From the IMG/VR virus record IMGVR_UViG_3300037400_003188, positions 57,014-121,013 of that record: DNA of 64,000 nt. The stretch is one strand, 5' to 3'. The notes beneath the pieces are model-generated. The model searched no databases and was not told the DNA's origin. It was given only the letters and a program-made list of their open reading frames with translations. Made by a program: the position numbers and the translations under genes. Source of the stretch: a virus. Its lineage: Duplodnaviria > Heunggongvirae > Uroviricota > Caudoviricetes. Of this stretch, positions 6,525 to 54,083 are shown one piece after another (position 1 is the stretch's first letter; every line of letters begins with the position of its first letter).

Positions 6525-6753
6525 GTAATAGCCAGGATTCTGTACCTACTTCCATCATTAAACTATTCGTCCTACCCTGGAGGCGGTAATTTGGGTAACC
6601 CCCTATACTTGGACTTTCACTTCCAAATAAGTGTCCTGAACTTCCTCACCCAAAAACGGCTGTTTTTAGAGCGCGATGGACTGCGTGTATATATAAATAT
6701 ATGTCTTGATACAAACGGATCAACCAACGATATTTATAGTTAAATATTTTTTG

Positions 6754-6836
6754 TACCCCAGGTGGAAGTCGAATCCACAGAATCACCAAATTTTGAGTTT
6801 GGCTGCTTTACCTATTTGCATACCGAGGCGTATTTT
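6754..6836 (-). tRNA. tRNA-like gene; anticodon CAA if the fold is right, with atypical arms
   Basis: T-arm GTGGA-AGTCGAA-TCCAC on the plus strand (sense T-loop TTCGACT). Anticodon hairpin CCAAA-CTCAAAA-TTTGG. The acceptor pairs only with several G-U pairs. Confidence 0.3.
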
Positions 6837-7233: not shown

Positions 7234-7243
7234 ATATATTTTG

Positions 7244-7321
7244 AGCGGTATACGGGTATCCCACCCGTGCATGCCTTCGCCTTGGAGGGGCGATGTGCGC
7301 CTGTAACTACACCAATACCGC
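7244..7321 (-). tRNA. tRNA-Gly(TCC)-like with a non-canonical T-loop
   Basis: The acceptor arms GCGGTAT / ATACCGC are perfectly complementary. Anticodon stem TCGCC/GGCGA with sense loop CCTCCAA. The T-loop TGGGATA is unusual. Confidence 0.4.
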
Positions 7322-7328
7322 GAATATT

Positions 7329-8309
7329 TTATATACCAAATCTTATTTTTTGTATCTCATTTTTAATTCCAAATTTTTCACATTTCTTAATAAGACAAGT
7401 TACACTAATATCAAGAATCTTTGCAACTTTAGCATAACTAACATTTTCTATGCTATTAAATGTTTTTAAAATTTCATCTTTAGTTATATTTTTCAAATAT
7501 TTTACTCGTTCACATTTTTTAGAACAAAATGTTGTTTGTCCTTCTGCTAGTTTTCTTCCACAAACAATACATCTGGTAACATTTTCTATATCTTTCTCCA
7601 AATCAGATTCTATATCTTGTCGATAATACTTTGTTCTTCTATCTACTCGTTTTGATTCATGATTTTTGATTGTCCCAAAAGTTTCTGTCAGTGAGTGGCA
7701 ATTTGGACACAATAATTGTAAATTTTCTTCTTTATTATTTGTACAATCACCGTCAATGTGGTGTATTTGTAATGGTACTTTATCAGTATATTTATTCTTT
7801 TCTGACCATCCACATATCTGACATGAATCATGGTATTGTTCAAATAAATAGCGTCTTATGTGTGATGAAATTCCACCAACTCCAGACTCTCCGTTTTCTT
7901 CACCGTTTTTCCATTTTAAAATATATTGTTTGTATTCGTAATTATTTTTACAAGTATTATCACAATATTTATGGCCATAAGGAATCTCTTTATTGCAACT
8001 CAAACAATAACTATTTTTATTTATTTTGTTTATTCCATATTTTAACCTATTATGATATAAACCATTGCATCTTTGATTGCAAAATTTTTGCCTACTATCT
8101 TTTCCAACAATCTCTTTACCACAATAAAGACAATATTTTTTTGGTTTTTCTTTTTTGTTTTTTAACCACTCTTGCCAATCAACACCGTTTTCACTAAGTA
8201 TTTTTTTGCACTTCTCTCTGTTCGTGTAGTTTTCTTTTCCAAATATTGCACGCGCAATATCACTCATCGAATTACTTTTTTCTAAAATCTCATTTAAATT
8301 TGTATTCAT
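7329..8309 (-). CDS. HNH homing endonuclease
   Basis: 326 aa, Cys-rich. The C-terminal HNH motif is LQIHHIDGDCTNN...NLQLLCPNCH. It is flanked by tRNA genes on both sides. Confidence 0.8.
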   Translation of the reverse strand: MNTNLNEILEKSNSMSDIARAIFGKENYTNREKCKKILSENGVDWQEWLKNKKEKPKKYCLYCGKEIVGKDSRQKFCNQRCNGLYHNRLKYGINKINKNSYCLSCNKEIPYGHKYCDNTCKNNYEYKQYILKWKNGEENGESGVGGISSHIRRYLFEQYHDSCQICGWSEKNKYTDKVPLQIHHIDGDCTNNKEENLQLLCPNCHSLTETFGTIKNHESKRVDRRTKYYRQDIESDLEKDIENVTRCIVCGRKLAEGQTTFCSKKCERVKYLKNITKDEILKTFNSIENVSYAKVAKILDISVTCLIKKCEKFGIKNEIQKIRFGI

Positions 8310-9447: not shown

Positions 9448-9477
9448 ATTATTTAAATTTCAATGTTCACATTTTTG

Positions 9478-9562
9478 AGACAGCAGTCGGATTCGAACCA
9501 ACGCGGGTATTGCTACCTCCAGATTTGCAGTCTGGCACCTTCAGCCGCTCAGTCATGCTGTC
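9478..9562 (-). tRNA. tRNA with GCA anticodon (Cys) and an extended variable region
   Basis: The acceptor arms GACAGCA / TGCTGTC are perfectly complementary. Anticodon stem CCAGA/TCTGG with sense loop CTGCAAA. T-loop ATTCGAA. Confidence 0.4.
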
Positions 9563-9640: not shown

Positions 9641-9714
9641 GCAGGTGCGGTAGGATTCGAACCCACGAAGACTTTCGTCCACAGTTTTGGAGACTGCTCG
9701 CGTTGGCCACTTGC
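9640..9714 (-). tRNA. tRNA-like gene (anticodon arm unresolved)
   Basis: The acceptor arms GCAGGTG / CACTTGC pair with one G-U. T-arm GGATTCGAACCCAC. The internal folding was not resolved by eye. Confidence 0.3.
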
Positions 9715-10158
9715 ATACACACCAGTATTAAAAAGATACCCTGAGAAGATTTTGTTTCTATGTTTCTATCTACCCAGGGTATTTGTTTGTTATATTTACC
9801 AATCTACTTTTAGTTAACAGAACACATAGAACAAGTTGAACGTCTAAACCAATAGCCGCCTTTCAATCCGTTATATTTGAAACACTTATTCATCATGTTA
9901 TTCTTTTTGTTTTAAAATTAATTACTACCCATTTTTTTAATTTTATTAATCTGTTCCCATATTATTTATGGTATTTTGTTTTCTTTTTCAATTATAAATA
10001 TACAAATAATTTAAAAAATATCAATATAAACTGATTTTTTTATTATTTTTTTTTGATCAACTTTTATTTTTACTCCTTTGACTAACTTGTTTTGTTACAA
10101 GATATACAAATTCGACAAACACTACAAATGTAATTCTCTAATATAATACCTTTCATAA

Positions 10159-11743: not shown

Positions 11744-13010
11744 TTATATTCATAAATCTCTCAATTGCATTGTTCTTCGTTAACATACTATCTGTTATTT
11801 CTGTGTCTATTGATACGCCTTCTGCTTTCCTACATCTACTCAATGCTGTGTATAACTGGCCTGTTTGAAATATCTCTTTGATATGTAATACTACGTTGTC
11901 AAATGTTAATCCCTGTGACTTGTGTATCGTTACCGCATAAGCAAGTGTTAGTGGAAATTGTGTACATGTGCCAGTTACAAATTTATTTATGACAGTTTTT
12001 ACTTCACCATTTTCAACTTCACTTGTTACGTCGTACTTATAACATTCAGTTTTTTTTGCTTCAAGGAAAACTATATTTTTTTCGTCTGTCTCTATCTTAA
12101 TGTATTCTGGCTTAATGTCTCTTACATATCCAAGTGTACCATTATGATATTGTCCAGCATCCGTATCATTCATAGTAATCATTACCCTGGCACCTTCTTT
12201 TAACCTTAATTCAAGGTCGCAAATTGCGTTCTTTGGATTAAAGTCTCCTGTTAGCACGGCTCTAATGATATGTGTTGGGTCTCCAAGTCTTGCTACATTA
12301 TATGATTCAGCCACATTTCGTAAAGCACATAAGTGAATAGCCTTGTCTGGCTGTTTGTTTTTCATCATCTGCTTTACCATCTGTTTAGATTTGTCAGACA
12401 GTTTGCCGTCTCTAACATCTCCTAATAAGTCAATAAAATCTTTGTCTGTTTGTCTAAATATCTCCGTAAGTTCAACAGTGTGAAATTTTGTATTCTCAAA
12501 TACCCTTGCGTTAAAGAAATAGAAGTCATCATAAAACTCAGACAACACATTGCCCTCATCATTTGTTACAACTGGCGGCAATTGCATCATATCGCCAAAC
12601 ATAATAACCTGTATGCCACCGAATGCCAGACTCGATTTTTTTACACTACGAAGTCTTCTATCTATAGCATCCATAAGGTCGCACCTAACCATAGATATCT
12701 CATCAATAATTAGTATCTTAATCTTTCTGAGAATTGCTTTCTTCGCTGCTGGTAATTTCCAGGAAAATGGTTCTTCTGGATTTTGAACACCTATATCTAA
12801 TGAAAAGAGATTGTGTATGGTTACGCCTTCTGCGTTAATAGCAGCAACACCCGTAGGTGCTACTACTACACATTCTCCTTTGTGTTCACTGGTAATTTGT
12901 TTTAGTAATGTTGTCTTACCAGTACCAGCCTTACCTGTTATAAAGAGATTTTGTCCACCATCAATTAAAGAATATATGTCATCCTTTCTTTCTTCCATTA
13001 CTCCTAACAA
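11706..13010 (-). CDS. Dda/RecD/PIF1-family 5'-3' DNA helicase
   Basis: Walker A (ITGKAGTGKTT), Walker B (LIIDEISMV), and the C-terminal motif VTIHKSQGLTFDNVVL typical of RecD/PIF1/Dda helicases. Confidence 0.85.
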   Translation of the reverse strand: MLGVMEERKDDIYSLIDGGQNLFITGKAGTGKTTLLKQITSEHKGECVVVAPTGVAAINAEGVTIHNLFSLDIGVQNPEEPFSWKLPAAKKAILRKIKILIIDEISMVRCDLMDAIDRRLRSVKKSSLAFGGIQVIMFGDMMQLPPVVTNDEGNVLSEFYDDFYFFNARVFENTKFHTVELTEIFRQTDKDFIDLLGDVRDGKLSDKSKQMVKQMMKNKQPDKAIHLCALRNVAESYNVARLGDPTHIIRAVLTGDFNPKNAICDLELRLKEGARVMITMNDTDAGQYHNGTLGYVRDIKPEYIKIETDEKNIVFLEAKKTECYKYDVTSEVENGEVKTVINKFVTGTCTQFPLTLAYAVTIHKSQGLTFDNVVLHIKEIFQTGQLYTALSRCRKAEGVSIDTEITDSMLTKNNAIERFMNIIEQNDGDYGYCR

Positions 13011-43087: not shown

Positions 43088-43161
43088 TACTGCAACTGAG
43101 ATTCGAACTCAGAATCTTCACCTTGAGAGGGTGACGGCTTAACCATTTCGCCTATAGCAGC
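43088..43161 (-). tRNA. tRNA-Glu(CTC)
   Basis: T-arm CTGAG-ATTCGAA-CTCAG. Anticodon stem TCACC/GGTGA with sense loop CTCTCAA. Confidence 0.5.
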
Positions 43162-43355
43162 ATATATAACCCACAACAACAGTGATCCTTCAACCTATAA
43201 TTTGAACACGGACAATGTTTGTCCTCACTATCATTCATACATGGGCAATTACCTTCGCACTTATTAATCCTATTAATTATAGCATTTACAACCTTTTCGT
43301 TTGGATTTAATATCCAACCATCCTTACAATTTAATCTCGCCTCATTTATTGTCAT
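43152..43355 (-). CDS. small Cys-rich protein between two tRNA genes
   Basis: ORF 43152..43397 trimmed to MTINEARL, because the annotated start lies inside tRNA-Arg. The protein contains CEGNCPCMNDSEDKHCPCSNYRLKDHCCCG. Confidence 0.35.
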   Translation of the reverse strand: MTINEARLNCKDGWILNPNEKVVNAIINRINKCEGNCPCMNDSEDKHCPCSNYRLKDHCCCGLYMLL

Positions 43356-43370
43356 TTTAAACAGTTTTTG

Positions 43371-43445
43371 TACCCCAGGAGAGGGTCGAACTCCCATTCT
43401 TGTCCTTCGTAGGGACCTGCGTTAAATCCATTGCGCCACTGGGGC
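43371..43445 (-). tRNA. tRNA-Arg(ACG)
   Basis: T-loop GGTCGAA (sense TTCGACC). Anticodon hairpin GTCC-TTCGTAG-GGAC, sense loop CTACGAA. Confidence 0.5.
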
Positions 43446-43468: not shown

Positions 43469-44236
43469 TTATTTATCATCTTGTAACGTTATCCTATTTC
43501 TGTGAAACCTATATGATTTCTTATTTAAAGAGCCAAAATTATCAGTTAATGTATGACAATTTGGGCATAATAATTCTAAATTATTGATTGTGTTATTAGT
43601 ACAATTTCCGTCTTTATGATGAATTTCTAATTGTATAGTATGAGTGTATTGATTCATTTCACCCCATCCACATTTTTGACATTTACAATCATATTTATTC
43701 ATTAGATATTTACGTATAAATAGTGGTATCTGTGTGGCTCCTCGTAGAAAATTTTCCCCATTCAGCCATCTTTTTATTTTATTCTTTTCATCAAATTCGT
43801 TTTTGCATTTGTTACAACAAAAATCTTTATTTCCGATAAATAACTTTCCGCATTGTTTACACGTTTTTAGTTCCTTTTTATTTTTTTGGGACAGCGTATT
43901 TGATGTTTTTAACCTCGATTCAATTGAACGCGTTCTATTAAAATTATTATAAGAGGCAGAACATGATTTTGAACAAAATTTATTATCACGCTGTTGATAT
44001 GATAATTTTTTCCCACAATACTTACAATATAATGGTTTATTATTATAATCTTCTTCAGTTATTTTCTTATCTATATAATCATATATATTAATATCAAAAT
44101 GTTTGATAACTTTTTCTATGAATCTATAGCCACTTCCATTATTTTTATATCCAAATTTTCGCAAAAAATCCATTTTTGTTTTACATTCTCGTAAAACATT
44201 AATAACTTCATCTTTTTTTATTTCGTTTATATCCAT
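43469..44236 (-). CDS. HNH homing endonuclease
   Basis: 255 aa, Cys-rich. HNH motif LEIHHKDGNCTNN...NLELLCPNCH. Confidence 0.8.
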   Translation of the reverse strand: MDINEIKKDEVINVLRECKTKMDFLRKFGYKNNGSGYRFIEKVIKHFDINIYDYIDKKITEEDYNNKPLYCKYCGKKLSYQQRDNKFCSKSCSASYNNFNRTRSIESRLKTSNTLSQKNKKELKTCKQCGKLFIGNKDFCCNKCKNEFDEKNKIKRWLNGENFLRGATQIPLFIRKYLMNKYDCKCQKCGWGEMNQYTHTIQLEIHHKDGNCTNNTINNLELLCPNCHTLTDNFGSLNKKSYRFHRNRITLQDDK

Positions 44237-45194: not shown

Positions 45195-45290
45195 TGCGGA
45201 TACTCCCCGACTCGAACGGAGACCACGCTATCAACGTGTACTGGTGGTTTTCCTTACTACTCTATGTTTCCATAGCCAACCCATGTTATC
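45195..45290 (-). tRNA. tRNA-like gene with an inserted about-20-nt hairpin (CTATGGAAACATAG)
   Basis: Canonical T-arm CTCCG-TTCGAGT-CGGGG and plausible acceptor pairing, but about 64 nt lie between the acceptor and the T-arm. Confidence 0.25.
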
Positions 45291-45339
45291 CGTTACAGGG
45301 TTCCCGCTTGTTATCGCAAAGAACATCTTTGTTCATTGT

Positions 45340-45700
45340 TTTTCGGGAGTTGTTGTAGTCTGGACTCTATCTTAACCATATTAGAATCTTGCAAGATGTA
45401 TATTGTGTTACAGGATGGGGTTGCTGCACCATCTCTTACCGTATTGCTTCTATCGCATAATATACAATTCTAACTTAGGTTTCTCCTGTATAGTCTCTAC
45501 ACACTGTCTCTTATTGTTCTGGTCTGATTTGATGTTCTATTACGTACATCATATTGCAATGCACCACCAGCGTAGTTATCCAACAATAACATTGGCTCGG
45601 TATTAACATATTCATTTCTGAACTTAGTCTTCGCCGAATTAGGGAGGTTCTACTCTATAAGTTTCCTTATAGGCACTCAAATTGTTTAAGACCACTGCCT
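45340..45700 (-). repeat. about-360-bp noncoding element, copy 1 (paralog of 52790-53150)
   Basis: Shared blocks with copy 2: gttgtagtctggactct...catattagaatcttgcaagat, ttctaacttaggtttctcctgta...ctctacacactgtct, acattggctcggtatta, ccgaattagggaggttctact, cactcaaatt. Confidence 0.5.
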
Positions 45701-45861
45701 TACCAATTAGGCTTAAGTATCCAAAAAATTAAATAACACTTATTATGTATTACCGTTTAGATGTAGGCGTATTGGAGTCAAACCATTGTTCAGTGTGAGC
45801 ATCAGTCGTTCAATGCTTCTCGCCCCAACCTAAGTAATACTTTTAATATTTTTAGGTTTTT

Positions 45862-45886: not shown

Positions 45887-46106
45887 TTTGTTATCCTCGT
45901 GTCATACGGCATCGTTTCACCAAAGTTAAACCAGACAGTACTAAGGTAACTAAACGTCTTTGGGTTCGCTACATAAAGAATTACCAATATGTCAATCGTA
46001 CTATAGGAATGTCGCTTCCTACGCCTTAAGGTATATGATGCATTGTTTCACCCTACATCCCACATATAACCTTAGATAACAAATTTGGGTTTTAAAGTCG
46101 TTATAG

Positions 46107-46180
46107 TACCTCCTGCTGGATTCGAACCTGCACTACATAGATTCTTAGTCTATTACCTCTTCCAATTGGATTAAGGAGGT
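46107..46180 (-). tRNA. tRNA with AAG anticodon, type-I architecture
   Basis: The acceptor arms ACCTCCT / AGGAGGT are perfectly complementary. T-loop ATTCGAA. Anticodon stem ATAGA/TCTAT with sense loop CTAAGAA. Confidence 0.45.
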
Positions 46181-47141: not shown

Positions 47142-47366
47142 AAGGTGCAAGTTTTCGAATTTAGGGTTACACGAAACTCGCTAATATTAACCTTTTCAAG
47201 AATAAGAATGACTAGTTCCTATTTTGTCTTGTCAACCAATTTATTTAGGCCCTTTCCCATGTACCACTTCAACTCTTCTTTAAGTTATCATATAGTTAGT
47301 CAAACTATTACTTTCACTTAACGTGGAGCAACCTGCTTAATTGGTAATACGTGTTGCTTCAGATTG

Positions 47367-47454
47367 CTTCTGGAACGGGACTCGAACCCGCAACGGCCTC
47401 TCGGCTCTCTCTAGCGTGACAGGCTAGCATGTTGACCATTTACACCATCCAGAA
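47367..47454 (-). tRNA. type-II-like tRNA with GTC (Asp) anticodon
   Basis: The acceptor arms TTCTGGA / TCCAGAA are perfectly complementary. T-loop ACTCGAA. Anticodon stem CTAGC/GCTAG with loop CTGTCAC. The variable arm is about 19 nt. Confidence 0.4.
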
Positions 47455-47598
47455 ATTTTAGTTATAATTATTTAGAGTTGCCACAACTAACAACTTTCTT
47501 ACCCCAAGCGTCTACCATTTCGTCATCTAGAACTATGTCCTAGAGGAGAACTCAAACCTAACATACATACATGCTTCCTCGAAGTCTGATAGTCTTTG

Positions 47599-47671
47599 TG
47601 GCCCCAATTTGATTCGAACAAATGTGACGACTTTGTAAGAGTCGCATACTCAACCACTATATGATGGGACC
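47599..47671 (-). tRNA. tRNA-Val(TAC)
   Basis: T-arm ATTTG-ATTCGAA-CAAAT. Anticodon stem CGACT/AGTCG with sense loop CTTACAA. Confidence 0.6.
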
Positions 47672-47838
47672 AAAATTAGAAAATTTTAGAGGCTAACACC
47701 ATTCTATCCAATGAGATGTTATTTAAGATTTGTTAACGGGAGTTTCCTCCAAGACCATTGTACACTAGTCACGTTCGGGCTGCGTCTTTAGTTTACCGTA
47801 CACCTCTCCAGTTTGTACATACTGGAATATTTTCATTG

Positions 47839-47910
47839 TACCGAGAGATGGATTTGAACCACCGACTATTCGCGTATGAGACGAATGTTCTGCCACTGAA
47901 CTATCTCGGC
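47839..47910 (-). tRNA. tRNA with CAT anticodon (Met or Ile2)
   Basis: T-loop ATTTGAA. Sense anticodon loop CTCATAC. The acceptor arms ACCGAGA / TCTCGGC are near-complementary. Confidence 0.5.
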
Positions 47911-48058
47911 ATTTGTAGGCAAAATAGGAGTCGAACCTACGTGTAACCAACTACTCTTTCTACTCGGTATCAGCGAGAGGAGATATTTGCCTATACACAC
48001 TGCCTAAAGGGAACTTGACAACTGACAGTGTTCGCGCATAAGTTATCTAACCTCATTG

Positions 48059-48129
48059 TTGCCCCACGAGGAGTCGGACCTCGCTTTTCAGAACCAAAAT
48101 CTGACGTAATACCGATATACCATAAGGCA
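48059..48129 (-). tRNA. tRNA-Gln(TTG)
   Basis: T-arm CGAGG-AGTCGGA-CCTCG. Anticodon stem TCAGA/TCTGA with sense loop TTTTGGT. Confidence 0.55.
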
Positions 48130-48164
48130 AGATTTAGTTCATATTGTTTTGTAAGGGAGACGAA

Positions 48165-48240
48165 CCTTTCGGACTCGAACCGAATTCACTAAAGAGCATC
48201 ACTTAAACCTCTGCCAATGCTTAAGTCCGACCCAAAAAAC
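48165..48240 (-). ncRNA. tRNA-like element E1 (paralog of 51285-51365)
   Basis: T-arm-like hairpin TTCGG-ACTCGAA-CCGAA. TCGGACT/AGTCCGA are perfectly complementary over 7 nt. Shared blocks with E2: ttcactaa.agcatcac and tgccaatgcttaa. No canonical cloverleaf found. Confidence 0.3.
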
Positions 48241-48592
48241 AATACACGATTTTATAGGTGATCGACCTATCACTCTGAACGGTAAATCTTAAACCAAGTG
48301 TCCATATCTCTATAGCCAGATACCAGCATCAGGTCTTATTGACCATCAGTCAACCTGTGATTAGTAGGATTTATGTCCGTCTTTCCAGAGTGTCATATGT
48401 GAGCCATAACCTCCCCCTCGGATTTCTCTTTCATTGGGGGTACCCTTCAGCAATAATTGGGCCGCTGGTTTTTACAAGTTGTCCTTCTTATTTAGTCATA
48501 GTATTTGCATATTTAAGGGTTGCGACCCCTCGTGTACGGTCTGCCTCCGCCCTATGTTAGAAACTATAACTAATTGGTTATCAATAAGTTAG

Positions 48593-48668
48593 AGCCTTCT
48601 CTCAGATTCGAACTGAGGGTAATTCCATATTACAAGTATGGCGGAGTCGACCACTGTCCCAAGAAGGC
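48593..48668 (-). tRNA. tRNA-Thr(TGT)
   Basis: The acceptor arms GCCTTCT / AGAAGGC are perfectly complementary. T-arm CTCAG-ATTCGAA-CTGAG. Anticodon stem CCATA/TATGG with sense loop CTTGTAA. Confidence 0.65.
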
Positions 48669-49273
48669 AATTTGCTCAAAATCGTAAAACTTAACAAGTA
48701 TTATGTGTTGTCTCTCAGGTAACGCTCTCATAATAAATTTGTTAAGAAAGGGGACTCGGTTAATGAGCAGTTATACACGCTTTCTCCCTTTTTTAGAGTT
48801 TGTTCTGAACACCAGATTTAAAGTGTTTACTCACTAAATTAGGTAAGCCTTACTGTCCACAAACGTCCTATGGACCCTCCGACCTTAACTGGTGACGTTA
48901 TACCAACCTCAGGCTATACCTAAAAAAGAGATACGGCTCTAAACCACGCACACGTAGAGGACTCAACGTCGTATCGGAACATTATGGAGTTACCCATTTT
49001 GTACCATAGTCCTGCGCTGATAGCAACCTTATAAATCAGCAGTCACAAATTTAGTACCTTTTACGGTTTTGTGTCTTTTCCCATCAAGGAAATGATGGTG
49101 GGGGTGGTAGTAATTTTATGGTTGATTAGACCCATGCGGTAAAAACTACAAACCTTGCGGCTTTTCATATTGAAATGCTTAGTCAGGCGGGAATCGTATC
49201 GCTAATCGCCACTAGCGTCCATCTTATTGAGGGAGAGTCAACCGACGTTAAATCGTAGTCGGAATTTGTGATG

Positions 49274-49366
49274 CTGGCAGGGTGGGATTCGAACCCACGG
49301 TGGATTGTTAATCATCGGCTTAACAGGCCGAACCGTTCGGCCACTACGGCAACCTACCAATCATAC
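49274..49366 (-). tRNA. Ser-like tRNA with an apparent 8-nt anticodon loop
   Basis: T-arm GTGGG-ATTCGAA-CCCAC. The D-region TGGCCGAACGGTTCGGCC resembles Ser tRNAs. The anticodon hairpin is TGTTAA-GCCGATGA-TTAACA. The acceptor was not resolved. Confidence 0.3.
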
Positions 49367-49382
49367 TATTTATATTAATTTG

Positions 49383-49454
49383 TTGCGGAGGTGGGGATCG
49401 AACCCACGGCCTTCAGGTTATGAGCCTGACGAGATACCTCTTCTCTACTCCACG
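49383..49454 (-). tRNA. initiator-like tRNA-fMet(CAT)
   Basis: T-arm GTGGG-GATCGAA-CCCAC. D-arm GAGA/TCTC. Sense anticodon loop CTCATAA. The acceptor has a C1·A72 mismatch, the hallmark of bacterial initiator tRNA. Confidence 0.5.
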
Positions 49455-49460
49455 ATATTG

Positions 49461-49535
49461 TAGACCGAGAGGGGCTTGAACCCACGACCTTCTGATTATG
49501 AGTCAGACGCTACTTACCAACTGAGCTATCGGTCT
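49461..49535 (-). tRNA. tRNA-Met(CAT), elongator or Ile2-type
   Basis: The acceptor arms AGACCGA / TCGGTCT are perfectly complementary. T-loop GCTTGAA. D-arm TAGCTCAGTTGGTAAGTAGCG. Anticodon stem TCTGA/TCAGA with loop CTCATAA. Confidence 0.65.
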
Positions 49536-49671
49536 AAAAGAGTTTTTTCTATTCTCATAGGAACTTTATAACCTACCTGACATTATACGATTCAGCATCA
49601 CACAGTGCATATGGTATGCAGGGATGAAAGTTACGATTCAGAAATTACCGCGAATTATTTCTGACAATTAT

Positions 49672-50568
49672 TTATTTTATATCTTTTTTCCGATAAGGTA
49701 AACCGTAATATTTACACCACTTACTAATCGTTCGATCAGAAACACCGAATTCTTTACCTAAAGCCCTAAATGAATATTTTTTAACCAACTCTAATAACTT
49801 TTCTTTTGCTGGTCGTTCAACTTTACGCTGCTTTAAACTCGCTTCATTCTGAGCACTTGTTCTTCCATTGTCTAATCGTTCTTTTTTAATATAACCTTTC
49901 GGTTTCTTAAATATCCCAAATCTTTTACCACTTTCTATTTTTCTAAAATTATCCAAATTTAAAGTCTTGTCTATTAAATTCCAATCATTCTTAACAGTAT
50001 CCTCTGTATAACGAATAATCTTCCAGCCTAAACTTTGAATTAATTCATCTTTTTTATTATCTCTCTCTTGTCTTTCATTTTCAATTTCATGTTGTGAGCC
50101 ATCTATCTCTACAACCAATTTAATCTCATTAAAAGCAAAATCAGCATAATATGGAAAAAAAGATTTTTCTCTTTCTATTTCGTATTTTTTATTAATACCT
50201 CTATCTTTTAGATATTTAATAAAACATTTTTCTGGGTACGATGTATTATTTTTTGATAATCTCCACGCTGTTTGTTCTGGATGTTCTTTCATAAATTTTA
50301 AACGGGCCTCCCTAACTTTTGATTTTGCCTCTTCGGAGAGCCTAAATCTTTCTGGATATTTTTTATGTGCTAACTTATTAGCCTCTGAAAAATTACGAGT
50401 TATACCATGTAATAATTTTAACCGAATCCATTGATTCGCTTTAATATTATACTTATCCGCAATCTCTCGTATCGATAAGCCTTCTAGGTACTCTTTTCGC
50501 ATTTTTTCTTTCTCTTTTTCAGAGAATAAATAGTCATACTTTGTATTGTTTTTATGTGCCATATTCAT
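49672..50568 (-). CDS. HTH plus Vsr/DUF559-like endonuclease (putative homing endonuclease) inside the tRNA array
   Basis: 298 aa. N- and C-terminal helix-turn-helix-like segments (LSIREIADKYNI; GKEFGVSDRTISKWC). Central VVEIDGSQH...GWKIIRYTE resembles the Vsr/DUF559 PD-(D/E)xK motif. Confidence 0.5.
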   Translation of the reverse strand: MNMAHKNNTKYDYLFSEKEKEKMRKEYLEGLSIREIADKYNIKANQWIRLKLLHGITRNFSEANKLAHKKYPERFRLSEEAKSKVREARLKFMKEHPEQTAWRLSKNNTSYPEKCFIKYLKDRGINKKYEIEREKSFFPYYADFAFNEIKLVVEIDGSQHEIENERQERDNKKDELIQSLGWKIIRYTEDTVKNDWNLIDKTLNLDNFRKIESGKRFGIFKKPKGYIKKERLDNGRTSAQNEASLKQRKVERPAKEKLLELVKKYSFRALGKEFGVSDRTISKWCKYYGLPYRKKDIK

Positions 50569-50653
50569 TTATATTTCTATATATAAATACATTTTAATAC
50601 CAAAAAACGAACACTTTTTTTCCAAAAAATAGAAAATAAACTGATGTGTTTAG

Positions 50654-50740
50654 TAGCGCCAACGAGATTCGAACTCGTGAGGAGATTACTCTCCAAGCAG
50701 CGTGAAAGGCTGCCGACCTAAACCACTAGTCGATAGCGCC
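50654..50740 (-). tRNA. type-II-like tRNA with TTC (Glu) anticodon
   Basis: T-arm ACGAG-ATTCGAA-CTCGT. The acceptor arms GGCGCTA / TGGCGCT pair with two G-U. Anticodon stem GCAGC/GCTGC with loop CTTTCAC. The variable arm is about 18 nt with a GGAGA/TCTCC stem. Confidence 0.4.
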
Positions 50741-51284
50741 ATTTTAGTCCATACAGAACCCCATTGGAAAGATATGGACATTGACAACGAGTTAACATTA
50801 TGTCGTTGTTCTTTTTTAAGTGAGTATTCAAAGGGTTAACCGAGTTTCACGGTCTTTTTACATCGAGCGTCCCGCAATCGTTACTTGCGCCTTGGGGTAC
50901 CTCTCACCACATACATTTAAATGTGCGCACCCAGGTATCATTCGTATTCCTCGACTTCTTTCCTGGGTCGGTCGTTTATTTCCGCTTCCCTTTACTAGAC
51001 CTTTCTTTGTCTCCCCCGTCTTGAACGGCGTCCACTTGCGTGGATTAAATTCTGATTCGGGAAATACCCATATAAGTGTAAACCACATAGTGCTGTTTTT
51101 GGCCTATCCCATCATTCTATGTCCATCTTCATCTAATGATGTCGCTCTCCTCACGTGAAAGAGCCTTTATTTCAATAGTGACCCGCACGGCTTCGTCCTC
51201 GGCTAAAATGGAAACGGCTGTAACTTCTAGTCTTTATTAATGGTTTTTTATAAGTAAATATTAGTTCATATCACTATATAAGGA

Positions 51285-51365
51285 CTGATGCTTTTGGACT
51301 TTAACCAAATTCACTAATAGCATCACACATCTTGCCAATGCTTAACACCAGCCAAAGAGTAATAC
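51285..51365 (-). ncRNA. tRNA-like element E2 (paralog of 48165-48240)
   Basis: Hairpin TTTGG-ACTTTAA-CCAAA. Shares the ttcactaatagcatcac and tgccaatgcttaa blocks with E1. Confidence 0.3.
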
Positions 51366-51397
51366 AATTCGAGATTTTCTCCCCGACCAGGTTTATT

Positions 51398-51424
51398 TAA
51401 GTTGTTTTCCTTCAACTATAAAAT
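51398..51424. repeat. hairpin motif, copy 2
   Basis: aagttgttttccttcaactataaaa. Confidence 0.5.
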
Positions 51425-51583
51425 ATTAACACTATCCGCATCATAAGCCTTCCATGGATACTTATGAATTATTCGAATGATAAAACATTTGTTTTGTGAA
51501 CCACCACTATTTTTCAAGATATACGGTTGTGGATATGTTAATATAGTAAAATAACTTCAGTTATAATACTTTTATTAGTTTTT

Positions 51584-51607
51584 AAAGTTGTTTCATTCAA
51601 CTATAAG
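51584..51607. repeat. hairpin motif, copy 3
   Basis: tttttaaagttgtttcattcaactataag. Confidence 0.45.
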
Positions 51608-51716
51608 TTTGAGAGGAATAGGCTCTCACCTCTCTATGTGGTCTTCTGCCATCCACTTTGTTACTCTTTGGCTCGTACTGCCGCCTATAAGCGCTTTTGG
51701 ACTTTTATTGGTTTTT

Positions 51717-51740
51717 GTAAGTTGTTTTCCTCAACTAATG
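51717..51740. repeat. hairpin motif, copy 4 (diverged)
   Basis: gtaagttgttttcctcaactaatgg. Confidence 0.4.
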
Positions 51741-52480
51741 GGTCTACTGACCTTGAAGATTCTCACTTCACGTTTAAAACGTCTTCTAAAGTTTACAATC
51801 ATCATCTAGAATCGTGATTAGAAATCAGTAGATGGGTTAAGTGCCCGAAGCATCCCAGTTCTAACTTTTATCTTCGCATCACCAGCGCAGCACTTATAAA
51901 AACAGAACAGTAAATTTGCGAACTACGGACTTGACTAAGCGCTTATTAGAAATATAAAGACTATCCATTGTCAATCGGGGCTTACCTGAGATTATTTACT
52001 CAAGCGATTTCTCTACCACCTCGCCTGGAGAACGATTCCAGATTATCAAACTATTTCCTTACACGTTCATCGTTTTAACATACGATTTCCTTATACCTGT
52101 CATGTTGCGTTGTACATTACGGCTCCTCGCGGAATAGGTTCGTCATACCTACGAAGGGGAAACCCCAAAAATTCGCCGAAACCATCAAAAGCGACAAACT
52201 GCGTATCTCGACATCTCATAGAATATTACATTGACGCGTTATAATATTCAATCTCGCCCTATTTAGGTTGCTAGTACTGTTACTGAAACTAAATTGAATT
52301 AGTTTTGATTGTCGGGTAGGCGAGATTCGAACTCACGGCCTCCTGAACCCAAATCAGGCATCTTAGACCAACTGGACCACTACCCGTTTTTGTCTAGATA
52401 GAGAGACTCGAACTCCCGATACCTTGCTTCCAATGCAAGAATGTTACCAACTCCACCATATCTAGATTTTTTTAGTTTTT

Positions 52481-53443: not shown

Positions 53444-53516
53444 CGAAATCTGCTGCAAAAGTACAACAAATTTTTGACATATAAAAATTTTGGAGCAAAA
53501 ATTTTCATTTTTTTTT
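53444..53516 (-). promoter_or_regulatory. class-B conserved upstream element, copy 6 (tRNA-associated variant)
   Basis: aaatctgctgcaaaagtacaac...catataaaaattttggagcaaaaattttcatttttttt. Confidence 0.5.
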
Positions 53517-53589: not shown

Positions 53590-53924
53590 TATTCGTGATT
53601 CGGGTGAGACTCGAACTCACAACCTACAGATTAGTCTGCTACTCTCGCTTTTATACGAGCCAACTCCATGAGTTGTTGTAGTCTGGACTCTTTCATTACC
53701 ATGAGACTTAAATCTTTTAGGCACTTCCTATAGAGTCTCTACGCCATTTATCAGATTACTCTGAACTTAGTAAGCCATCGCCAACTCCTACGTCTCCGTA
53801 AGATAGGTTTCTGTTTCTTAGGGAAGTTCTACATTCGGAGTTTCCTCCGATGCACTCCTATTTTCAAAGTCTGTTGCGCTATCCATTGCGCCACCGAACC
53901 ATTATGTTTCAAAGATCACTTTTG

Positions 53925-54008: not shown

Positions 54009-54083
54009 TTTTCAAATCTGGTGCAAAGGTACAACTTTTTTTTGGAATATAAAAATTTTGGAGCAAAAATTTTCATTTTTTTA
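54009..54083 (-). promoter_or_regulatory. class-B conserved upstream element, copy 7 (tRNA-associated variant)
   Basis: aaatctggtgcaaaggtacaac...aatataaaaattttggagcaaaaattttcattttttt, upstream of the 43-54 kb tRNA array. Confidence 0.5.

Follow-up and report, generated by a model that had tools for sequence, protein, structure and literature searches.

Transfer RNA genes with an extra variable arm on Asp, Glu, Asn, Cys and Trp isoacceptors in a Lak-like gut megaphage

We analyzed a 64,000-nucleotide stretch of DNA (positions 57,014 to 121,013 of the IMG/VR virus record IMGVR_UViG_3300037400_003188; hereafter the window), which is the transfer RNA (tRNA) region of a Lak-like gut megaphage. Five tRNA genes in the window, with anticodons for Asp, Glu, Asn, Cys and Trp, are genuine tRNA genes that possess an additional stem-loop in the variable region; we regard them as real because two independent detectors, ARAGORN and Infernal with the Rfam model RF00005, agree. 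In cells, a long variable arm is restricted to the tRNAs for Leu, Ser, bacterial Tyr and selenocysteine (Sec). The tRNA-Asn of the window belongs to a large family of class-II-like tRNA-Asn that is found almost only in viral contigs. Our tentative reading, which we consider quite possible though short of probable, is that the five are phage elongator tRNAs that would be charged with the amino acid of their anticodon and would retain the arm, and that the arm alters the shape of the tRNA core, perhaps evading host defenses that target tRNA.

Results

Five long tRNAs in the window

The five genes, with the methods that support each, are as follows.

47366..47454 (start 47366/7), minus strand: tRNA-Asp(GUC), 89 nucleotides (nt), 7/5 cloverleaf; ARAGORN, RF00005, Infernal alignment
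50653..50740 (start 50653/4), minus strand: tRNA-Glu(UUC), 88 nt, A73; ARAGORN, RF00005, Infernal alignment
49273..49359, minus strand: tRNA-Asn(GUU), 87 nt, class-II-like, long D loop; ARAGORN, RF00005, Infernal alignment
9477..9562, minus strand: tRNA-Cys(GCA), 86 nt, class-II-like, arm GGUA-GCAA-UACC, U73; ARAGORN, RF00005 (52.2 bits)
9641..9724, minus strand: tRNA-Trp(CCA), 84 nt, class-II-like, arm GGAC-GAAA-GUCU, G73; ARAGORN, RF00005 (34.8 bits)

Each of the five has a 7-base-pair (bp) acceptor stem, a 5-bp T stem (7/5) and a 7-nt anticodon loop, and their variable regions measure 19, 17, 16, 16 and 14 nt (Asp, Glu, Asn, Cys and Trp, respectively), with stems of 3-5 bp. All five, together with a short tRNA-Leu(AAG) described below, score above the RF00005 gathering threshold of 29 bits over model positions 1-71. 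The Asn, Cys and Trp tRNAs combine the extra arm with a class-II-type D arm that has a long loop (GTAGTGGCCGAA, GAGCGGCTGA and AAGTGGCCAA, in that order), and the Asp and Glu tRNAs look like ordinary type-I bodies to which a hairpin has been added.

An initial annotation of this DNA had proposed long variable arms on the Asp(GUC) and Glu(UUC) tRNAs while allowing that these might be hand-folding errors. Both arms are recovered by ARAGORN, RF00005 and Infernal, with normal 7-nt anticodon loops and with variable regions of 17-19 nt that contain a hairpin, and the doubt is lifted for these two tRNAs in that the Infernal alignment keeps the anticodons GUC and UUC and places the insertions exactly in the variable region. 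For the Asp tRNA (54.8 bits, E value of 4.8e-9), this alignment yields the loop CUGUCAC and a 15-nt insertion that brings the variable region to 19 nt (47392-47410), within which GCC-GAGA-GGC forms the hairpin. The tRNA has the Asp identity marks G73, C38 and G10-U25, and its anticodon and T arms are the same as those of standard 5-nt-loop phage Asp tRNAs, with 14 extra nt between AG and GTT of the loop. An Asp pattern search of IMG/VR returned only normal 5-nt-loop tRNAs, and no long Asp orthologue with the same arm was found in the data; the arm is therefore placed solely by the covariance-model alignment. Related phage contigs, which were reached via two flanking proteins and of which the closer ones mostly end inside the tRNA array, have Asp genes of other lengths (78 nt in contig L018, 75 and 73 nt in L020).

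The Glu tRNA (51.2 bits) has the 7-nt loop CUUUCAC and a 16-nt insertion in the variable region of the Infernal alignment, with the hairpin GGAGA-GUAA-UCUCC at 50681-50694, and RNAfold predicts a five-arm cloverleaf as its most stable structure (z = -2.87). Arm included, this tRNA is 100% identical among the window, L018 and L044, and the 200-nt flanks are 48-62% identical. Its D arm agrees with that of the normal Glu tRNAs of Lak-A2 and L048. A Glu pattern search in IMG/VR gave no relatives, and BLAST of the Asp and Glu tRNAs against GenBank phages likewise gave none.

The Asn tRNA (45.4 bits) has its anticodon at 49322-49324 in the arm UCGGC-CUGUUAA-GCCGA, a 16-nt variable region at 49299-49314 (U-GAUU-AAC-AAUC-CACC), the pair U1-A72 and G73. 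The initial annotation had taken 49274-49366 for a Ser-like tRNA with an 8-nt anticodon loop, reminiscent of frameshift suppressors. The TGTTAA/TTAACA pairing on which this was built does exist and is the minimum-energy fold of the single sequence. However, the complement of TTAACA is not kept in relatives, whereas the standard Asn anticodon arm is kept through compensatory changes at 31-39 (A-U, C-G, G-C). The proposed tRNA thus results from misfolding tRNA-Asn(GUU), whose anticodon loop is the 7-nt CUGUUAA on a covarying 5-bp stem, and with the 8-nt loop the suppressor-like feature disappears as well. An identical 87-nt tRNA-Asn is present in L018, and that of L020 shows a compensatory change from C-G to G-C in the anticodon stem and a different variable arm, GUA-GCAA-UAC. 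The distant relatives L048-L051 encode an 89-nt tRNA-Asn with another anticodon stem, T stem and arm stem, together with Asp and Glu tRNAs of normal length; L048, a relative at 56% identity, was reached via a protein and not via the pattern. In Lak-A1 and Lak-A2, the Asp, Asn and Glu tRNAs are all normal. The 200 nt downstream of the window gene (49073-49272, minus strand) are ~92% identical in L018 and L020, with other flanks at ~50-60%, which suggests another conserved non-coding RNA.

An arm nearly identical to that of the window Trp tRNA is found in the viral locus L063, and the Trp tRNAs of Lak-A1 and Lak-A2 are 92 nt long. We considered whether the Cys, Glu and Asp variable-arm hairpins represent a mobile mini-element and rejected this, as they do not recur in the window above chance. 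A role of GNRA caps as a special docking signal was also rejected: four of the five window arms are GNRA-capped, but GAAA and GNRA loops are equally common in ordinary phage Leu arms.

A class-II-like tRNA-Asn family in viral contigs

A narrow pattern, composed of the Asn anticodon arm and T arm separated by a 6-30-nt gap, matched 13 metagenome loci, all of which are tRNA arrays with a tRNA-Asn of 87-90 nt; several lie on large contigs, and two of the contigs are also viral in IMG/VR. The same pattern produced zero matches in 185,579 GTDB species-representative genomes. A looser family pattern matched 69 loci in IMG/VR, the largest contig measuring 476 kilobases (kb), and in 69/69 of these ARAGORN recognizes a tRNA-Asn(GUU) that is 84 nt or longer. 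The single match of the looser pattern in the GTDB genomes is a 3' tRNA fragment that is not called by ARAGORN.

Across nine distinct sequences, pairing holds for 95.5% of the Asn cloverleaf including the arm, and 8 pairs are compensatory. The covariation score of 0.287 compares with 0.118 in shuffles (0/500 reach 0.287) and with at most 0.08 when partners are slid; covariation within the T arm and anticodon stem is uninformative, because the former and most of the latter had been set by the pattern itself. The 63 distinct family members have 53 different arm hairpins built on 24 different stems, and at least 3 contiguous pairs are present in 77% of the arm hairpins, as compared with 5.6% after shuffling. 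The geometry of the family is 1 unpaired nt, a stem of 3-4 bp and 4 unpaired nt (a CAMC tail), in addition to a class-II-type D arm, and members come from gut, freshwater and marine contigs and from Pseudomonas phage phiKZ.

The phiKZ member, PHIKZ_t02 (NC_004629, 269557-269645), was found by BLAST and is 87 nt long according to ARAGORN and 89 nt in RefSeq; its CCA is encoded and its arm is GGC-GAAA-GCC. It lies beside an HNH endonuclease gene and ~2.1 kb from a normal tRNA-Asn (271740-271817). BLAST also revealed a member in Cellulophaga phage phi4:1 (NC_021788, 90400-90481), where it is annotated as tRNA-OTHER/tRNA-Pseudo. Among 36 arrays with enough flank, the long form is the only tRNA-Asn seen in 23, and in the other 13 it is accompanied by a normal copy, often 7-57 nt away. 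This is consistent with the long form being a working tRNA that in some arrays is retained as a different, second version. We also considered whether the long tRNA-Asn derives from tRNA-Tyr, given that its D arm and arm geometry are like those of E. coli tRNA-Tyr, but this origin appears doubtful: the core profile favors Ser and then Tyr, and the acceptor ends fit neither.

Amino acid identity of the long tRNAs

Asn identity is conferred by the anticodon together with G73 and can be transplanted between tRNA bodies, with U1-A72 serving the amidotransferase route (PMC9976931). Leu identity in E. coli depends on A73, with the long arm dispensable, and Tyr identity depends on A73 and U35 (PMC9976931). 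The core of Ser identity is the long variable arm plus G73 or U73 (PMC5389517). We counted the corresponding positions in distinct sequences from viral arrays, as follows.

Ser (n = 46): G2-C71 in 45/46, A3-U70 in 41/46
Tyr (n = 27): A73 in 27/27
Leu (n = 54): A73 in 51/54
Long Asn (n = 60): G73 in 47, U73 in 13, A73 in 0; 1-72 is U-A in 31 and G-C in 28; 2-71 and 3-70 variable
Normal Asn (n = 30): 1-72 is U-A in 16 and G-C in 12
Long Cys (n = 9): U73 in 8/9

The division of the long Asn tRNAs between U-A and G-C at 1-72 matches that of the normal Asn tRNAs of the arrays, and their arm geometry (1, 3-4, 4) is unlike that of Ser (1, 4-6, 1), Leu (0, 3-5, 2) and Tyr. Within the window, the tRNA-Asn has the complete Asn identity set (GUU, G73 and U1-A72). 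The Ser acceptor signature is lacking in the window tRNAs, with 2-71 being U-A in Asp and A-U in Cys and 3-70 being G-C in Asn. The discriminator is G73 in Asp, Asn and Trp, U73 in Cys and A73 only in Glu, and A73 is also present on the normal-length Glu tRNAs of relatives. These identity marks thus track the anticodon, which favors cognate charging over a role as decoys or in missense decoding. The suggestion of the initial annotation that these are decoy or suppressor tRNAs consequently finds little in its favor: the marks follow the anticodon in Asp, Cys and Asn, and the long Asn tRNAs never have A73.

Other isoacceptors and tRNAs of unusual length

Long forms are not limited to Asn. Counting tRNAs of at least 82 nt within the 69 viral loci, we observed the following.

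Asp: 5/34
Glu(UUC): 3/34
Cys: 10/29
His: 5/26
Ile(GAU): 12/59
Met: 8/48
Thr(UGU): 8/37
Trp: 3/15

Some of these also form families, as seen from the Trp tRNA of L063 and the Glu tRNA of L088, which shares the layout of the window tRNA-Glu (GUGAA-GAAA-UUCAC then UC, versus GGAGA-GUAA-UCUCC then UC). Short Leu tRNAs, of no more than 78 nt, are likewise frequent in the 69 loci, and the window has two Leu genes without a long arm.

46106..46180 (start 46106/7), minus strand: tRNA-Leu(AAG), 75 nt, type I, short variable loop, A73; ARAGORN, RF00005 (44.4 bits)
6753..6829, minus strand: tRNA-Leu(CAA), 77 nt, without a long variable arm, A73; ARAGORN, RF00005 (47.8 bits)

The former bears out the initial annotation, which had read an AAG anticodon on a type-I architecture at 46107-46180, and it is kept in L018 and L020 with a compensatory change in the T stem.

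Several further genes depart from the ordinary form. A conserved tRNA-like gene at 47916-47992 (minus strand; L018 4055-4145 and L020 1525-1615) has a GAU loop, a D arm that is nearly lacking and an 18-22-nt variable region; its RF00005 score of 29.3 bits is barely at the threshold, and ARAGORN assigns it to Ile(GAU), or to an undetermined type in relatives. The Gly(UCC) gene at 7243-7321 (79 nt) and the Thr(UGU) gene at 48592-48668 (77 nt), both on the minus strand, are ARAGORN calls without an RF00005 match at the gathering threshold. The Thr(UGU) tRNA of L048 is 84 nt long with an arm capped by UUCG, and Gly and Thr isoacceptors are also among the tRNAs listed as intron-containing by Devoto et al. 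(bioRxiv 10.1101/356790). A long Arg(ACG) tRNA of 90 nt is encoded in L018 (8462-8551) and L020 (7393-7482), the window Arg(ACG) being a different, 76-nt gene, and L044 encodes an 89-nt Met(CAU) tRNA with an A-A mismatch at 1-72 (11916-12004), which has no counterpart in the window.

Split tRNA genes with predicted group I introns

Two tRNA genes of the window are split after U34 by an intron.

45196..45722, minus strand: tRNA-Ser(UGA), split by a 435-nt intron; ARAGORN with introns, RF00028
52637..53168, minus strand: tRNA-Leu(UAA), interrupted by a predicted group I intron of 445 nt; ARAGORN with introns

The Ser(UGA) gene consists of a 5' exon (45688-45722), the intron (45253-45687) and a 57-nt 3' exon (45196-45252). 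The insert is a predicted group I intron, matching RF00028 over 45344-45698 with 37 bits (E value of 1.5e-6), which is below the 50-bit gathering threshold. The exon ends in CUU and the intron in AAG, and the joined exons produce the 7-nt loop CUUGAAA. A CTATG-GAAA-CATAG hairpin precedes the 3' splice site by 9 nt, and L018 and L020 have an intronless Ser(UGA) gene at the corresponding place. What the initial annotation had described at 45195-45290 as a tRNA-like gene with a hairpin insertion is thereby explained as the last 38 nt of the intron, including the GAAA-capped hairpin, followed by the 3' exon. The Leu(UAA) intron is homologous to that of Ser(UGA), with blocks of 72-100% identity; its RF00028 match is weak (17.8 bits, also below threshold), and L044 has an intronless Leu(UAA) gene. 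A third intron-bearing tRNA at 53595-53900 (minus strand) has a related intron of ~232 nt with an ambiguous splice junction: joining CU or CUU to ACUAA produces a 7-nt loop with the anticodon ACU or an 8-nt loop, and ARAGORN forces Lys(UUU).

The intron in cyanobacterial tRNA-Leu(UAA) sits in the anticodon loop at the corresponding position. The window introns resemble the cyanobacterial and plastid group I intron of tRNA-Leu(UAA) in that they follow U34 and end in G. They are unlike it in that they reside in a phage array, that one of the tRNAs that hosts them is Ser(UGA) and that they score 37 and 17.8 bits against the 50-bit threshold of RF00028.

Phage lineage and surroundings of the array

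The DnaK-like open reading frame (ORF) at 22664-24619 is 59% identical to its Prevotella Lak megaphage counterparts. The deoxynucleoside kinase (dNK) adjoining the tRNA region has relatives in phages at 73-97% identity and Prevotella and Bacteroidales homologues at ~62%. The window is AT-rich (~35% GC), and reading through TAG as in an alternative genetic code alters few of its ORFs. Megablast of the tRNA array against GenBank phages gave no close DNA match, and a dNK protein search in IMG/VR yielded no relatives. ARAGORN identifies 29 tRNA genes in the window, all on the minus strand and in two clusters; RF00005 identifies 27 tRNA loci, 26 of which are also ARAGORN calls. Devoto et al. (bioRxiv 10.1101/356790) describe Lak phages as having large intergenic regions that are expressed, together with "enigmatic introns" in oversized tRNAs, and the array of the window, gene-poor and with oversized tRNAs, agrees with that description. 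The 43-54 kb cluster nearly lacks protein genes, with only a short unassigned ORF at 43152-43397 and two endonuclease ORFs.

49672..50568, minus strand: DUF559 endonuclease-like ORF with helix-turn-helix domains, inside the tRNA array; Pfam, PHROGs
43469..44236, minus strand: HNH endonuclease ORF, inside the tRNA array; PHROGs

The former is probably a homing endonuclease, and a third endonuclease ORF of the window array is found at 7329-8309. The Pfam and PHROGs matches among the window ORFs comprise DNA methylases, helicases, DnaK/GrpE, dNK, primase and endonucleases.

Other features lie in or near the array. An ORF with a Ro60/TROVE-like vWA domain (58585-59949, plus strand; DUF2828/DUF7788, "RNA-binding protein" in PHROGs) adjoins it and has homologues in L044, L045, L047 and L048; Ro proteins bind misfolded and tRNA-like RNAs. 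A 69-nt direct repeat (53446-53514 and 54014-54082, 90% identical), AT-rich and with TTTG motifs, is located upstream of tRNA blocks and may be a Bacteroidetes-type promoter. Approximately 1.3 kb of non-coding DNA separates Pro(UGG) from Glu(UUC) (50741-52310), the corresponding gap being ~230 nt in L018 and L044. Five copies of a hairpin motif, TTATAGTTGAAGGAAAACAACTT, occur in the array; those at ~51400, 51585, 51720 and 52480 lie within or just upstream of this non-coding DNA, and the fifth is at ~45860. A tRNA-like fragment (51261-51356) forms a pair with 48134-48235. Genes similar to IS605 OrfB/TnpB (Cas12f1-like) occur in or near the tRNA region of relatives (L039, 5158-6483; L049, 15571-16485).

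Discussion

Evasion of host tRNA nucleases by long-arm tRNAs appears plausible in light of known phage tRNAs. One phage tRNA-Tyr depends on a variable loop that is longer by 5 nt for its escape from Retron-Eco7 PtuAB (PMC12673091), and cleavage of tRNA-Tyr by Septu takes place in the variable arm (PMC13096335). In the case of the long tRNAs described here, the extra arm would stay in the mature tRNA, which would be charged with the amino acid of its anticodon and would then decode normal codons. We expect cognate charging because the main determinants, the anticodon and the discriminator, are retained, the Asn set being transplantable (PMC9976931). Selection on the long forms is indicated by a Glu tRNA that stays unchanged where its flanks have diverged and by the covarying Asn arm, and the frequent occurrence of the long form as the only tRNA-Asn of its array also favors a working tRNA. 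The arm would reshape the tRNA core in such a way that the translation apparatus still uses the tRNA and nucleases or toxins no longer recognize it as they do a host type-I tRNA, and homing endonucleases in the arrays would help cassettes of long tRNAs to spread between phages. A wider proposal, which we regard as possible rather than likely, is that large phages keep a virus-specific, class-II-like set of tRNAs (Asn most often, and Cys, Trp, His, Ile, Met, Thr, Asp and Glu) that would be normally charged and orthogonal to host tRNAs, and that would provide back-up decoding able to withstand immunity directed at tRNAs, or an attack that the phage itself makes on the tRNAs of its host.

Several points weigh against charged, arm-bearing elongators with a role in evasion. 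The Asp arm is weak: its stem has 3 bp, the minimum-energy fold of the tRNA departs from the cloverleaf (z = -1.0), and no orthologue was found. A short variable region, with nucleotide 47 missing, is an identity element for E. coli glutamyl-tRNA synthetase (GluRS), and a long arm could hinder cognate charging of tRNA-Glu if this rule applies. The covariation in the Asn family shows only that the insert is constrained to form a hairpin, not that the hairpin has adaptive value. With the variable region removed and the anticodon hidden, the profile of phage Ser tRNAs is the best match for the core of 41/60 long Asn sequences, and Ser-like ancestry, charging with Ser or residual recognition by seryl-tRNA synthetase (SerRS) could still apply. 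Finally, no synthetase, tRNA-modifying enzyme or tRNA nuclease was recognizable by Pfam and PHROGs among ~40 window ORFs.

The main rival of a role in defense evasion is tolerated structural drift, in which a hairpin was inserted, or a class-II body changed its identity, where the synthetase ignores the region, with pairing kept against misfolding and with homing endonucleases responsible for spread. We view this as possible but somewhat doubtful. It would account for the variable presence of the arm among close relatives (Asp at 89 nt in the window and at the shorter lengths given above in L018 and L020; Arg(ACG) at 76 nt in the window versus 90 nt in those contigs), for the many isoacceptors affected, each at low frequency, for arm sequences that are unrelated between families and whose loops are mostly the generic GAAA of ordinary Leu arms, and for the endonuclease ORFs in the window array and beside the phiKZ gene. 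Drift does not readily explain why the Asn family holds one precise arm geometry and a class-II-type D arm across its varied sources, why it is essentially absent from cellular genomes, why it often lies so close to a normal Asn copy or why the Glu arm is invariant where the flanks have diverged. The conserved Asn geometry would also suit an arm that serves as a handle for a phage partner, for example a synthetase, an enzyme that modifies or processes tRNA or a Ro60-like RNA-binding protein, by which phage tRNAs would be specifically marked, matured or protected, and the Ro60/TROVE-like vWA ORF is kept beside the array in relatives. However, it is the shape of the arm that is conserved and not its sequence, and the family is present in very different phages (phiKZ and Cellulophaga phi4:1) with no partner identified, which makes a handle unlikely.

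That SerRS, or leucyl- or tyrosyl-tRNA synthetase (LeuRS, TyrRS), reads the scaffold, so that Asn, Asp or Glu codons would partly be decoded as another amino acid or the tRNAs would act as decoys, as with allo-tRNAs and nev-tRNAs, seems to us very improbable. A long arm with G73 or U73 is indeed the core of Ser identity (PMC5389517), the long-Asn core is closest to the phage Ser profile, and Glu combines A73 with a 5-bp arm. On the other hand, the long Asn tRNAs lack the near-invariant phage Ser signature G2-C71/A3-U70, never have A73 and possess an arm geometry unlike that of Ser, Leu and Tyr, discriminators follow the anticodon (U73 for Cys), and A73 is normal in the Glu tRNAs of relatives. 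Moreover, the long form is often the sole tRNA-Asn in an AT-rich phage, and missense decoding would thus harm the phage's own proteins. There is even less reason to believe that the hairpin is a small intervening sequence, removed to give a type-I tRNA. Devoto et al. (bioRxiv 10.1101/356790) report introns, called with eukaryotic tRNAscan settings, in oversized Lak tRNAs, and predicted group I introns are present in the same window array. The inserts, though, are of 12-16 nt and lie exactly at the canonical long-arm site after position 45, they have neither bulge-helix-bulge nor ribozyme features, the class-II-type D arm of Asn, Cys and Trp fits a retained arm, and the window encodes no splicing enzyme. 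Folding artefacts or pseudogenes are extremely improbable: although the phi4:1 copy is annotated as tRNA-Pseudo, the minimum-energy folds of Asp and Trp are not cloverleaves and Trp scores only 34.8 bits with U-U at 1-72, four of the five long tRNAs score 45-55 bits against RF00005, and the structures are backed by covariation (Asn) and strict conservation (Glu).

The restriction of long arms to Leu, Ser, bacterial Tyr and Sec underlies tRNA classification, the logic of gene finders and much work on synthetase recognition. Phages break this rule systematically and in both directions, with arms on class-I isoacceptors and Leu tRNAs without one. If the arm protects against tRNA-cleaving defenses, it would constitute a new, shape-based counter-defense alongside the known anticodon-loop and variable-loop changes of phage tRNAs. 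If it is neutral, then the asparaginyl-, cysteinyl-, tryptophanyl- and aspartyl-tRNA synthetase (AsnRS, CysRS, TrpRS and AspRS) and GluRS systems accept tRNAs with a fifth arm, a tolerance of use in the engineering of tagged or orthogonal tRNAs. Such genes are at present annotated as tRNA-Asn, as pseudogenes (phi4:1) or as intron-containing (Lak), and annotation as pseudogenes or as intron-containing causes phage tRNA repertoires to be misread. In the open-access literature, we found no earlier report of phage tRNAs for Asn, Asp or Glu that have a long arm; those described here are 7/5, viral and apparently cognate.

The window tRNAs share with canonical class II tRNAs the 7/5 cloverleaf, a stem-loop after position 45 and, in Asn, Cys and Trp, a long D loop. 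They are unlike these in their anticodons (GUC, UUC, GUU, GCA and CCA), in having the acceptor marks of the anticodon's amino acid and in the Asn arm geometry, which is its own. Allo-tRNAs are built with 8/4 or 9/3 acceptor and T stems and with a D arm like that of Sec tRNAs, and are predicted to have Ser identity (Mukai et al. 2017, PMC5389517). They are like the window tRNAs in that GUC is among their most common anticodons and in having G73 or U73 (PMC5389517), whereas the long tRNAs of the window are 7/5 and lack the Ser acceptor signature. The nev- and nov-tRNAs are noncanonical tRNAs containing a variable arm, from nematodes and other eukaryotes (Hamashima et al. 2012; Hamashima et al. 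2016, listed in PMC5389517 and summarized in PMC7954030). In common with the window tRNAs, they place the anticodon of a class-I amino acid on a class-II-like scaffold. The nev-tRNAs are charged with Leu and cause ambiguity. Unlike these eukaryotic nuclear genes, those of the window are viral and their identity marks follow the anticodon.

The Lak phages of Devoto et al. (bioRxiv 10.1101/356790) represent the same lineage and the same kind of locus, with oversized tRNAs in a gene-poor array. There, oversized Phe, Gly, Thr and Tyr tRNAs are taken to be intron-containing, and the accessible text describes neither long variable arms nor a group I assignment. The phage tRNA-Tyr that counters Retron-Eco7 PtuAB/Septu (PMC12673091, PMC13096335, PMC11555353) resembles the window tRNAs in that the variable region of the phage tRNA differs from that of the host. 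That tRNA was already class II and changed the length of its arm, whereas in the window the arm is found on isoacceptors that otherwise never have one.

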